Assembly: GCA_963693055.1 (NCBI GenBank)
Contig: OY843751.1
Span: forward strand, 1,632,001-1,696,000
Reading direction: 5' to 3'
Source of the DNA: a bacterium
GTDB lineage: Bacteria > Zhuqueibacterota > Zhuqueibacteria > Residuimicrobiales > Krinioviventaceae
Length of the DNA stretch: 64,000 bases
A program made the position numbers and the translations under genes. This document shows positions 12,302 through 16,640 of this stretch, in pieces. Each line of letters opens with the position of its first letter. The stretch's first letter is position 1. Below the pieces are notes generated by a model. That model ran no database searches and had not been told where the DNA came from. It saw nothing but the letters and a program-made list of their open reading frames with translations.

Positions 12302-15052
12302 TTATTTAACAAGGGTAGTTTTGTATCTTTTAATTATATTGTCAGCTCTGAATTCAATGATATAAATACCAGTAGCAACCGGTAGGTTGTGAAAATCGGT
12401 TCCCTGCCAGTTGATCTGATAATATCCAGCGGGGTGTTCACGGTCAACCAGTGTTGCTATTTTTTTACCCAGCAGGTTGAATACACTGATATTGACATTT
12501 GCCCGGTTGGCGATTTGATACCTGATCAGTGTAGATGCATTAAAGGGATTGGGATAGTTTTGGGACATATAGTGTTTATCCGGTCCCGCTGTTTGAATAT
12601 GAATGGGGGTGGTGTATGCGAAAGATCCATCATGATCTATGACCTTTAATCGATATGTATGTTCACCAGCGCCGGGATTATTTTCTGTAAAGGAATACGC
12701 TTGTCTTTCTTGCTGAGAATTGAGCGGCACAAATCCCAATACCTGGTATGCATTTCCTGATTTTTTCTCTATCTCGAACCCATAGCCATGCAAAGTGTGC
12801 TGAACTGACCAATTCAGGGTAATAGCATTGTTTTCATAACTGCCTGAAAATGACAGCAACTGCACAGGCACAGGATAAGAGTCAAGATCATTGATCCAAT
12901 CTGCAATGACTTGAGCGGCCTGTTCATCCACAAGACTGGTGGCTATGGGAGGCATGCGGTTTTCATTCAGGGCCATCATGCGCAAGTAAAGAATAGATTC
13001 CTCCGGACTGCCGGGTTTAACTCTGGCCGCATTGGCGGCACCTAAATCACCAAAGTCTGGTATTTCATCAACAAGCATCATTTCTTCGAGACTGGTTGCA
13101 AAGCGAAGGTCCATGTTTGAACGTCCGCTGCTGTTGGGTTGATGACAAAACGCGCAATTGGCATCAAGATAAGAACGGGCACGGTCAGAGATATCCTGTG
13201 TTTCATCATTTACATCAACCCGTTGGGGCCAGTTTGAATAATCCTCTCCAATATCCTCAGTAAAAAGATTAATATGGTTGAGTGTACGGAGTTGGTTGTC
13301 TGTGACCTCACCATAATCGTGGTTTTTGTTAAGCTGGCTGGTTTTAAATCCCAATACATAGCCCGATTCCGGCACATGGCAGGTTAAACATTCGTTGCGG
13401 GAAGGATAGTGGTAAACCTGATCGTATTGTCCGCCGGGTGCGTCACTGTCTGTAATTGTAAATGTAACATCCTTGGCATCTGTCAGCAAGTTTGCTTCGG
13501 TCCCGGCCTGGTTCCATTCGTAACTGAATCCATCCCATAGTTCACCGTAGGGACGTTTAACCAGAAACCGGGTTTCTATTAAACGACGGCTTGCTGAATT
13601 GCCTTTTTCCATTTCCAAACTAAAGTTTTTCACCAAAACTGTACCCGCGGGATAATCAAAGGGGTTTTCTTGAGAGAATGTGAGCTGCTCGGTTCCGGGG
13701 AGAGCAATATACCGGTCCTTGTATGCATTGTCTGACCAGAGCTGCGTATTCACAGAATAGGGGATAATTCCCGGTGCAATTGTTTTTGTATTCATGTTTG
13801 AATAAAAACCTGATGTGGATATAATTGAAGGCACATCGCCAGGAGGAGGAGAATCCTGGCGGGCGATGACTTTATAAATATTGCCATTATAGCCTACAAT
13901 ATACAATTCCCCGGATTCATCTTCTCCAAAGCTGGTGATGTGAGCAGGACTGGTTAATACCTGGTTTGAGGACAAGACATCTCGTCCATCGTAATCATAT
14001 TTCAGGGCCCATATTCTGCGGGATACATAATCGCCAAAGATGTAAAATCCATCCAGTTGGGGGAGAGATGTACCACGATATACATACCCACCGGTGACGG
14101 ATTCGCCAAGTGCGTGACTGTATTCAAAAACCGGTGTGTTGAATTCCCATGGATTACAACCTGACTGGTAGCAGTGTAGGCCTTCTGTAATGTTCCAGCC
14201 AAGATTGTTGCCCTTGCCTATAATATCAATTTCTTCCCAACTGTTTTGCCCAACGTCACCACACCAAAGCTTTCCGTTTGTCCGGTCAAAGCTAAAACGC
14301 CAGGGATTCCGTAATCCCCAGGCATAAATCTCTTTACGAAAAGCATTATCACCCACTAGCGGATTGTCCGGTGGAATGGCGTATTCCAGACCTTCATCTT
14401 TATTATCAACATCAATACGCAGTATGCTTCCCAGTAGGGTATAGCGGTCCTGGGCGTTACCCCAGGGATCACCCGCGCTGCCGCCGTCACCAAGGCCGAT
14501 GTAGAGATAGCCATCAGACCCAAACTCGATCATACCGCCATTGTGATTTGTGGCAGGCTGTTCCAGTGCAATCAGGATACGCTCAGAGTTTGGATCTGCA
14601 ATGTTGGGATCAGAAGAAACCTGAAACTCTGAAATTCTTGTGCTGCGTGTTGTAGGATTGTAATGTACATAAAATAAACCGTTTTGCTCAAAGTTGGGAT
14701 GAAAGGCCAGCCCCAGCAGACCGGTTTCGCTGCTGCTGGATGCTACTTTGTTCCGAAGGTCAATGAACCTTGTGAATTCTGAGGTGAGGGAGGCGTTATT
14801 GAAAACTTTGACTAGCCCGGGTTTTTCCACAACAAAAATTCGGTCTGTGCCATCATGCGAATGCGTAAGATAAATAGGCGAAGAAAAATTAAGATTTGTA
14901 AACACCTGTTCAAGGTCAAGATCGCCAACCTCATCACCCGTGGAGGTAATGAGCAGGGAGGTGTTGGGTGTGCGCTCGTTAATACCATATGGTTGTGAAA
15001 ACGTAACAGTGACTGTTAACAATATATAAAGTATACTTTTTGTGATATACAT
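12302..15052 (-). CDS. PQQ-dependent glucose/sorbosone dehydrogenase-family propeller + diheme cytochrome c + T9SS-type C-terminal domain
   Basis: GLLGLAFHP, NHNGG, DGYLY, GLRNPWR; two CxxCH (CLTCH, CAFCH) and RMPP; QNYPNPFN...VFNLLG sorting domain. Confidence 0.85.
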   Translation of the reverse strand: MYITKSILYILLTVTVTFSQPYGINERTPNTSLLITSTGDEVGDLDLEQVFTNLNFSSPIYLTHSHDGTDRIFVVEKPGLVKVFNNASLTSEFTRFIDLRNKVASSSSETGLLGLAFHPNFEQNGLFYVHYNPTTRSTRISEFQVSSDPNIADPNSERILIALEQPATNHNGGMIEFGSDGYLYIGLGDGGSAGDPWGNAQDRYTLLGSILRIDVDNKDEGLEYAIPPDNPLVGDNAFRKEIYAWGLRNPWRFSFDRTNGKLWCGDVGQNSWEEIDIIGKGNNLGWNITEGLHCYQSGCNPWEFNTPVFEYSHALGESVTGGYVYRGTSLPQLDGFYIFGDYVSRRIWALKYDYDGRDVLSSNQVLTSPAHITSFGEDESGELYIVGYNGNIYKVIARQDSPPPGDVPSIISTSGFYSNMNTKTIAPGIIPYSVNTQLWSDNAYKDRYIALPGTEQLTFSQENPFDYPAGTVLVKNFSLEMEKGNSASRRLIETRFLVKRPYGELWDGFSYEWNQAGTEANLLTDAKDVTFTITDSDAPGGQYDQVYHYPSRNECLTCHVPESGYVLGFKTSQLNKNHDYGEVTDNQLRTLNHINLFTEDIGEDYSNWPQRVDVNDETQDISDRARSYLDANCAFCHQPNSSGRSNMDLRFATSLEEMMLVDEIPDFGDLGAANAARVKPGSPEESILYLRMMALNENRMPPIATSLVDEQAAQVIADWINDLDSYPVPVQLLSFSGSYENNAITLNWSVQHTLHGYGFEIEKKSGNAYQVLGFVPLNSQQERQAYSFTENNPGAGEHTYRLKVIDHDGSFAYTTPIHIQTAGPDKHYMSQNYPNPFNASTLIRYQIANRANVNISVFNLLGKKIATLVDREHPAGYYQINWQGTDFHNLPVATGIYIIEFRADNIIKRYKTTLVK

Positions 15053-15435
15053 AGATTTACCCCTTAATTGTTTCTTTTTTCAATGTAAAAGAATCGTAGC
15101 AATGAAGCAAGGGAATTCATAATGAATAAGTATTGCAAGGCCATAATGCGGTAATTTGTCCCTATTGGGAAACATTTACCACCTTAAAACTGTGCCAAAA
15201 AATAAATTTTTGAGCATTTTTTTTAGTGAATAAAATATTTTTTCCCCCTGTTTTTAGAATAATTATTGGTTACGTGAATGTACAATGGATAAACGGTGCT
15301 TGATTGTTATTATTTACGGATTTTTAGTGATTTATTGCGTTTATTGTGGGATTTATTGGGAGGAGCTTCTATAGTTTTTTACGATATCTTGAAGTTGCAA
15401 TGGGATTGAATTTTTTGGTCTGATTTGCCATATAC

Positions 15436-15451
15436 GGGCATTTGAGTTGCG
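15436..15451 (+). promoter_or_regulatory. Putative sigma54 promoter with no downstream CDS
   Basis: gGGCA-tttgag-TTGCg; GG 15437-38 and GC 15449-50 exactly 12 bp apart. Confidence 0.5.
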
Positions 15452-15461
15452 ATAGTAAAAG

Positions 15462-15892
15462 TAGATTTGAAATTAAAAACTCCCTTTATCGGGAGTGCTC
15501 ATTGACAACAACAACAACAGTAACCCAATAAAACAGTTGACTGTGAATCAATCGCCGGACGGCAAGAGGATTTTTTTTTCTTTGCATAGTTGTACTTTTG
15601 TATAGATATATTTTGTGTGGATTCATTATGTTTCAGGTGATTTGAATATTATATGATGTGATTGATGATTTGGTGGTATTCTCTTGACCGTCCAGCGTCG
15701 ATTCCGGAAGACTGTTTAGAATCACTCCCCCTCCATACGGCCGCAAGGCCTGCAATGTGCTACGCGAATTGGATGATTATATGAGATATGCCGTGCAACG
15801 AGTCAATTGCAGGCCTTGTGGTTGTTCTTGTTTTACAGTACCAAGTTACCCTTACCCAAAAAAAGCCCCGTTTCATGCCGGGGCTTTTTTTT
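15462..15892 (+). ncRNA. Candidate long structured non-coding RNA (family unknown)
   Basis: Promoter-to-terminator unit without a credible ORF; stems 15531-15570/15679-15717 and 15737-15756/15806-15825. Confidence 0.5.
15858..15892. terminator. Bidirectional intrinsic terminator
   Basis: A7-GCCCCG-tttcatgc-CGGGGC-T8. Confidence 0.85.
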
Positions 15893-15893
15893 A

Positions 15894-16640
15894 TTAGAGC
15901 TTTTTAACAACATAAAAAACATTGCTGTAATATTTTGAGTATTTTTTATAGATCTCAATTTCTCTTTCTTCCATTTTCAATACTTGCAAAACATCATTGT
16001 TATTTTGATATTTTTTATACATGTATTGAATTCGCTCTTTTAGCGGATTATAATAACCATCCCACCAGTCTGAAGGAGGTTCAATATGATAAGAAATTGG
16101 ATCATAACCCAATGACTTGAATGTTTCCAGATTGTTTTCAATGCTGGTCATTGGCGGATATATCTCTTGAAAGTACTCTTGCAATTCGTCAGGTATGTCT
16201 TGACGAATCCAGGAAAGTTCCGAAACTGCCATAAAACCACCGGGTTTTAACAAGCGTTTCCATTCCTGCAATCCCTTTTCAAATCCAATAATAAAGATTG
16301 CACCTTCAACCCACAGTACATCAAACGATTCGTCAGGATATTCCAACTTGCACATGTCACCTTTTTGGATGACGATTCTTTTTTCTAAACCTTTTTCCAT
16401 TACAGCTGTTTGTAACTGGTCAAGAAAAGGTTGGTGAAAATCCAATGCGGTAATGTGTCCGTTGCAAAGAGAGGCCAGGGTTATGGTTTGTTGACCCGGA
16501 CCGCAGCCAATATCCAGTATTTTGGCGTTGTCAATATTAACGGATTGCCATGCTTTGGTTGTTGATTGTACACTACCGGGACCTTGTCTCGGCATGTTTG
16601 AATGGGTTTCCAGAAAATATTGCCATTGTTTTTCGTCCAT
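15894..16640 (-). CDS. Class I SAM-dependent methyltransferase
   Basis: PRQGPGS, ILDIGCGPG motif I, LKPGG. Confidence 0.9.
   Translation of the reverse strand: MDEKQWQYFLETHSNMPRQGPGSVQSTTKAWQSVNIDNAKILDIGCGPGQQTITLASLCNGHITALDFHQPFLDQLQTAVMEKGLEKRIVIQKGDMCKLEYPDESFDVLWVEGAIFIIGFEKGLQEWKRLLKPGGFMAVSELSWIRQDIPDELQEYFQEIYPPMTSIENNLETFKSLGYDPISYHIEPPSDWWDGYYNPLKERIQYMYKKYQNNNDVLQVLKMEEREIEIYKKYSKYYSNVFYVVKKL

Follow-up and report, generated by a model that had tools for sequence, protein, structure and literature searches.

A conserved two-stem element found in one bacterial genus is likely an uncatalogued non-coding RNA and possibly a precursor of two small RNAs

Does the 841-bp gap that lies between two minus-strand genes in the stretch of DNA analysed here (64,000 nucleotides, hereafter the window) contain a gene for a structured RNA, and if so, how might that RNA be produced and used? 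The window lies within a single-contig bacterial genome of 6.5 Mb (the source genome), whose gene content, as called with a simple ORF model, includes T9SS-type tails and flagella together with many sigma54 promoters. This content suggests that the host is uncultured and FCB-related, probably of the phylum KSB1. An earlier note on this DNA had proposed that the gap carries a sigma54-driven RNA made of two long stems closing large loops. The parts from which this proposal was assembled, namely a promoter-like motif, a small hairpin, an AAC tract, two stems, a linker and a terminator, are all found where that note had placed them. We refer to positions 15462-15892 (~430 nt) as the element; it occurs in a single copy in the source genome, and its features and neighbours are collected in Table 1.

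Table 1. Features of the element and of its surroundings (positions within the window; 'congener' denotes the one other genome that carries the element)
Feature	Position	Strand	Remarks
PQQ-dehydrogenase-like / diheme-like protein with T9SS-type tail	12302..15052	-	divergent neighbour; NCBIfam matches below cut-off
Conserved upstream block	15374..15461	+	likely promoter and regulator-binding region; 87 of 88 positions identical in congener
Imperfect dyad, 6-3-6	15396..15410		possible transcription-factor site
Sigma70-like frame, weak	15406..15434	+	-35 at 15406, 17 nt, -10 at 15429 without final T; alternative promoter
Degenerate -24/-12 (sigma54-like) motif	15437..15450	+	GGCA-N6-TTGC; start would fall near 15462
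5' hairpin, 6 bp	15479..15496	+	boxB-like position; terminator-like when read on minus strand
boxA-like motif, 13 nt	15497..15509	+	directly after 5' hairpin; putative NusB/NusE loading site
AAC tract (15505-15520) and A-rich spacer	15505..15530	+	mostly unpaired by pair probabilities; invariant in congener
Stem 1, 5' arm	15531..15571	+	34 predicted pairs with 15678-15717
Loop 1, 106 nt, U/G-rich	15572..15677	+	weakly structured; candidate released RNA
Stem 1, 3' arm	15678..15717	+	partner of 15531-15571
C-rich single-stranded linker	15718..15736	+	predicted unpaired; complementary to Shine-Dalgarno-type sequence; invariant in congener
Stem 2, 5' arm, 20 bp uninterrupted, three G-U on plus strand	15737..15756	+	partner of 15806-15825
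Loop 2, 49 nt, partly paired	15757..15805	+	candidate released RNA
Stem 2, 3' arm	15806..15825	+	partner of 15737-15756
Pyrimidine-rich tail	15826..15857	+	invariant in congener
Bidirectional intrinsic terminator	15858..15892		13-bp hairpin 15858-15891, A-run before, T-run after; common to convergent methyltransferase gene
SAM-dependent methyltransferase	15894..16640	-	convergent neighbour

Only one other genome, from the same genus, was found to carry a homologue, and there the element resides in the same context. The two copies agree at 420 of 433 aligned columns (97%), a value that none of 18 other intergenic regions compared between the two genomes reaches (range 69-96%, median 88%); four-fold sites are identical in 3621 of 5088 cases (71%). 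Identity is 58% in the ~170 bp (15201-15373) that adjoin the conserved upstream block, and at the other end strong conservation stops at the terminator. On the strength of this comparison, we judge that the element is under strong sequence constraint. Loop 1 differs by two substitutions and one insertion and loop 2 by two substitutions, such that the 155 nt of both loops hold four substitutions where about 45 would be expected at four-fold divergence, and therefore the sequence of the loops matters. The 5' hairpin exhibits one compensatory change (C-G to U-A). All 68 cells of stem 1 are paired in both species, and its two one-sided substitutions are A-U/G-U swaps on the plus strand that keep the pairs intact. 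In these two near-identical sequences, neither stem exhibits a two-sided change.

Searches by BLAST, covariance models, sequence patterns and synteny returned no homologue outside the genus. BLAST of 61 and 167 genomes recovered the congener only, the other matches being terminators or coding sequence (five weak loci were inspected), and covariance models built on stem 2 (125 and 39 genomes) and on stem 1 (39 genomes) found the same two genomes, with five weak stem 1 matches inspected and rejected. Patterns that combine the promoter with the boxA-like motif discussed below gave eight matches in 125 genomes and, when run on the full set of species genomes, 82 loci, nine of which were folded; in both sets only the two known copies are genuine. 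A boxA-plus-AAC pattern, run on 167 genomes, gave no homologue; of its 18 matches, 15 fall in coding frames and one lies before a gene. Among five genomes of the family, 87 matches to the boxA pattern were found and no two-stem analogue was recognised at the 71 sites inspected, the uninspected matches being mostly paired repeat matches in one genome (G004). Loci in two further genomes, G116 and G120, are chance matches only, and viral, phage and plasmid collections held no match to the element. Synteny in 16 further genomes of the order placed no comparable element next to the convergent methyltransferase gene, and the corresponding 20 metagenome loci reach at most 49% identity.

Rfam 15 gave no match at the gathering threshold anywhere in the window, and the best score in the region (31 bits against 47) covers the terminator only. 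The locus likewise matches none of 6S RNA, tmRNA and RNase P, the first two of which the earlier note had named as examples of known families. The tmRNA and RNase P genes of the source genome lie elsewhere (C1:4992653 and C1:4382527), and a 6S-like match below the cut-off is located at C1:2762068. A CrcZ-type Hfq sponge does not fit the element, which scores 11.6 bits with the CrcZ model (cut-off 95) and is encoded in a genome, 100% complete, in which Hfq was not found. CsrB and RsmZ are sponges with many ANGGA/GGA motifs in their loops. The element is of similar length and CsrA is encoded in the source genome; however, the element is not enriched in GGA (six, versus 5.6 +/- 1.9 in shuffled sequences) and lacks ANGGA, and we consider a sponge for CsrA unlikely. 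Retron msr-msd RNAs are adjacent to a reverse transcriptase gene, and none was found among the eight neighbouring proteins scanned. A strong sigma70 promoter of the left neighbour itself lies at 15110 (17.0 bits, and 18.7 bits in the congener), and therefore the element was rejected as the leader of that gene. A literature search that covered mainly open-access journals found no such RNA. Given the constraint evident in the congener, the Rfam result and the stem 1 substitutions that keep pairing on the plus strand, the claim that this is a new structured RNA of an unrecognised family has stood, and we conclude that the element is likely an uncatalogued non-coding RNA.

The region 15460-15895 folds better than all of 100 dinucleotide-shuffled controls on both strands (z = -5.08 on plus and -5.35 on minus), and the fold still beats shuffled sequences when the terminator and the 5' hairpin are removed (z = -5.46). 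Loop 1 alone is no better than shuffled sequences (z = +0.33) and is without a stable fold of its own. Stem 2 conforms to its earlier description as a 20-bp helix that closes 49 nt, including the three G-U pairs. In a scan of the first 1500 nt of each of 547 intergenic regions of the source genome, it ranks third in strength among uninterrupted long-range helices, and it passes on the plus strand only. Stem 1 is interrupted several times and is therefore not an ideal substrate for RNase III. A 17-nt repeat (15640-15656 and 15768-15784; 82%) is common to both loops, a hint that the two stem-loop units may have arisen by duplication, and three of the four loop substitutions in the congener fall within this repeat. 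A TolB-like SPDGKR reading in stem 1 was rejected; it accounts for BLAST noise, and its frame shifts between species.

Folding energy is not strand-selective, as is evident from the z scores just given and from the congener (-129.8 on plus versus -129.7 on minus). We nevertheless consider plus-strand transcription probable because the stems contain six G-U pairs on this strand versus two A-C positions, because both stem 1 substitutions preserve pairing there, and because the 88 conserved bases 5' of the hairpin and the direction in which the boxA-like motif reads point the same way.

Sigma54-linked small RNAs such as CrcZ, Qrr and GlmY are well known, and the element had been proposed as a further example. 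The letters GGCA-N6-TTGC are indeed present, and they form the best sigma54-like site in the gap, well placed with respect to the element. However, the label sigma54-driven is not supported by a matrix trained on the genome, in which the site reaches 6.4 bits, carries a G at -26 and is a poor match to the sigma54 sites of the source genome. As many as 321 intergenic sites in the source genome score at least as high. Of the 2277 sites with 5-7 bits, 157 lie between genes (7%, versus a background of 9.5%), and a count of 17 of 195 for the score class of this motif likewise shows no enrichment over background. In contrast, sites of at least 20 bits are intergenic in 31 of 33 cases, and each of the 16 strict consensus sites lies between genes and is directed towards one of them. 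The RpoN gene is present, and a sigma54 promoter for the element is, on sequence grounds, doubtful. The large sigma54 regulon of the source genome includes genes whose translations resemble dnaK, grpE, a small heat-shock protein, dps, nifH and flgB.

Other promoter classes fare no better. The genome-trained model finds no good sigma70 site on the plus strand of the gap; the weak sigma70-like frame scores -3.7 bits in the source genome and +3.3 bits in the congener, and it is the most enriched bipartite pair in the upstream block. The sigma28 match is poor and an ECF-type pair is absent from the gap. There is thus no convincing promoter of any class, and the strongly conserved upstream block is likely a promoter and regulator-binding region. 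The pattern of its dyad has 11 matches in the source genome, only two of them intergenic, and therefore no regulon was found. An imperfect direct repeat with copies ~53 bp apart (15389-15403 and 15442-15455) overlaps the -12 element with one copy. Ten bases at 15400-15409 match the 3' end of a CRISPR repeat of the source genome, probably by chance.

The earlier note had overlooked the boxA-like motif. A pattern that admits both this motif and the rrn boxA of the source genome has 19 matches in that genome, and the five intergenic ones are the element, the 16S leader, the 23S spacer and two CRISPR leaders, one of which carries the same A at position 5 as the element. The congener has 11 matches, of which four are intergenic: the homologue, one CRISPR leader and two rrn sites. 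This pattern was fitted after the site had been seen, and therefore the co-occurrence is suggestive only. The motif departs from the rrn boxA of its genome at three of 13 positions, a distance at which 1201 intergenic sites are equally close. When the pattern is relaxed, copies of an insertion sequence and unexplained sites are picked up as well, the third CRISPR cluster of the source genome has no exact match, and in four other genera many intergenic-looking matches head nothing recognisable. The E. coli boxA consensus permits a C at position 2 (PMC5725501). According to two further sources, boxA loads NusB/NusE and blocks Rho, the rrn leaders of B. subtilis start with a small hairpin that is directly followed by boxA (PMC13753749), and RNase III sites may form with the help of the Nus complex, which would bring remote arms together (PMC8632103). 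Genes for RNase III, NusB and Rho are present in the source genome. A working boxA at 15497-15509, which would load NusB/NusE, shield the RNA from Rho and assist the annealing of the arms, is in our judgement reasonably probable.

Several other boxA-like motifs were observed along the way. Two CRISPR arrays of the source genome (C1:2797900-2798500 and 2565350-2565950, minus strand) are broken by non-spacer modules of ~190 nt that recur along the array. Every module contains a boxA-like motif, and beyond it the repeat variant changes. An insertion-sequence end with a near-perfect boxA-like motif is located at C1:557453, 1352964 and 5160303 and in seven further copies, where the motif points away from a transposase-like gene. 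Another genome (G010; loci L194, L199 and L204) carries three copies of a hairpin with a boxA-like motif, located immediately upstream of an integrase/transposase-like pair, and a planctomycete locus (L116) combines a sigma54-like site and a hairpin with the same boxA-like motif. In the source genome, the tmRNA gene is directly bordered at its 5' end by a boxA-like motif (C1:4993016-4993030, minus strand), and about six sigma70-type promoters stand in tandem at the single rRNA operon (C1:4560600-4561150, minus strand).

Our best reading, to which we assign a probability of roughly 0.4, is that the plus strand encodes a Nus/boxA-protected precursor from which RNase III releases loop RNAs that act in trans. 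A precursor of ~430 nt would be transcribed from the gap, and NusB/NusE on the boxA-like motif would shield this untranslated RNA from Rho, while Nus factors would help the distant stem arms anneal, as in pre-rRNA. RNase III would cut both stems and thereby free the two loops (106 and 49 nt), and these small RNAs would likely regulate mRNAs by Hfq-independent base pairing. We favour this arrangement because of the pre-rRNA-like layout, the parallel with CJnc190 described below and the finding of no Hfq. The element is plausibly an RNase III precursor, and we give cleavage with loop release about even odds. A more specific version, in which the element is a kind of 'empty rRNA operon' (a stand-alone chromosomal transcript that uses the rRNA route, from 5' hairpin and boxA through Nus-assisted annealing to RNase III cleavage, so that one precursor yields two small regulatory RNAs, each shielded by the paired ends that cutting leaves behind), strikes us as rather unlikely.

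Target predictions do not single out a partner for the element. No segment exceeds shuffled sequences in complementarity to start regions once the five tests are allowed for (a single p of 0.025 among five segments). Of the three top sites, panC and dnaA were rejected since pairing is lost in the congener, and the third, which keeps 17 of 18 bases there, was set aside as it appears to lie within coding sequence; a groEL site apparently coincides in part with a -10 box. The element exhibits no complementarity to the rRNA of its own genome, and cross-pairing between its unpaired segments is not above that of shuffled sequences.

The conserved loops, the G-U pairs on the plus strand, the co-occurrence of the boxA-like motif with rRNA and CRISPR loci, the encoded RNase III, NusB and Rho, and the finding of no Hfq all speak for loop release; against it stand a boxA pattern fitted post hoc, predicted targets that are not above shuffled sequences, the interruptions of stem 1 and a strand that is not set by energy. 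The near invariance of the single-stranded parts, considered together with the lack of target complementarity above shuffled sequences, would also suit an uncut RNA that serves as a decoy or scaffold, whose stems display the AAC tract, the U/G-rich loops and the C-rich linker to a cold-shock or RRM protein, or, in a variant of this idea, one that titrates Nus factors or RNase III. The repeat common to both loops would make sense for such an RNA, and the source genome has one RRM gene as well as cold-shock-like genes among the script gene calls. However, the clustering of loop substitutions in that very repeat is unlike a protein site, the number of GGA motifs argues against CsrA as the ligand, and no Hfq was found that could bind the AAC tract. 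Protein binding by an uncut RNA is the main competing explanation, and we regard it as rather unlikely. Less probable still is an unprocessed small RNA whose linker (and tail) would cover G-rich ribosome-binding sites in the manner of H. pylori RepG, with the stems holding the seed open. The linker, predicted to be unpaired and without change in the congener, could pair with sites of the GGAGG type, one report describes how C/U-rich seeds act on G-rich sites (PMC8687705), and the start-region ratio is 3.0 versus 1.7 in shuffled sequences; but the corresponding p value is 0.08, the best helix is no better than in shuffled sequences, and the 155 conserved bases of the loops would be left without explanation.

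A transcript of the minus strand, or an antisense pair, would end at the small hairpin near 15474 and might encode a 30-residue protein. The minus strand folds as well as the plus strand, a minus-strand terminator scan marks this hairpin and the U-run that follows it as terminator-like, and a 30-codon frame, open in both genomes, lies behind a G-rich Shine-Dalgarno sequence opposite the linker. This scenario is nonetheless improbable: a conserved minus-strand promoter is lacking (2.4 bits in the source genome and below zero in the congener), a strong terminator sits just upstream on that strand, both stem 1 substitutions would there create A-C mismatches, no reason would remain for the conservation of the 88 bases past the 15474 end, and frames that cross the poly-T tract shift between species. 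Finally, the inverted repeats and high identity could have another cause, such as a site that acts at the level of DNA or the recent exchange of a segment, and the finding of the element in one genus only would agree with this. We consider such an origin highly improbable, given that the stems tolerate G-U pairs, the hairpin exhibits a compensatory change, identity ends at the terminator and falls to 58% just upstream, and the element is single copy.

Loop release from a protected precursor is our working model, and comparison with known systems indicates where it would be familiar and where it would be new. The order of hairpin, boxA-like motif, spacer, long stems closing domains and terminator resembles that of rRNA operons (PMC13753749, PMC8632103). 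The element differs from such operons in that it encloses merely 106 and 49 nt, has only 9-12 nt matches to the rRNA operon of the source genome, carries a motif with three mismatches from the rrn boxA, and exhibits no second boxA before stem 2. CRISPR leaders led by boxA are stated for gammaproteobacteria (PMC13753749), and such leaders also occur in the source genome; in both cases a boxA-like motif precedes non-coding sequence, whose transcript is cut into small RNAs in CRISPR arrays and would be so in the element, but the element lacks repeats and spacers, the upstream 10-nt match to a repeat end being probably fortuitous. Among sigma54-linked small RNAs, CJnc230/FlmE (with FlmE processed with RNase III; PMC11187230) and Pxr (PMC10217877) have been described. 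The element resembles them in its possible -24/-12 promoter and differs in the weakness of that site and in a host where Hfq was not found.

The closest parallel is CJnc190 of Campylobacter jejuni, which is freed by RNase III in a host without Hfq; its precursor starts with a 5' hairpin, and a long duplex flanks the released RNA (PMC8687705). The element also has a 5' hairpin and a long intramolecular duplex around a loop, its predicted 34-pair and 20-pair stems flank the candidate loop RNAs, and the source genome encodes RNase III and appears to lack Hfq. It differs in having two tandem stem-loop units and a boxA-like motif, in U/G-rich loops with a C-rich tract outside the stems, and in having no shown sequence likeness to CJnc190. 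Although the evidence comes from two sequences of one genus, the model, if true, would mean that boxA/Nus antitermination, known from rRNA operons and CRISPR arrays, also serves the production of small RNAs, and would add a two-unit version of the CJnc190 RNase III route in an uncultured lineage without Hfq.
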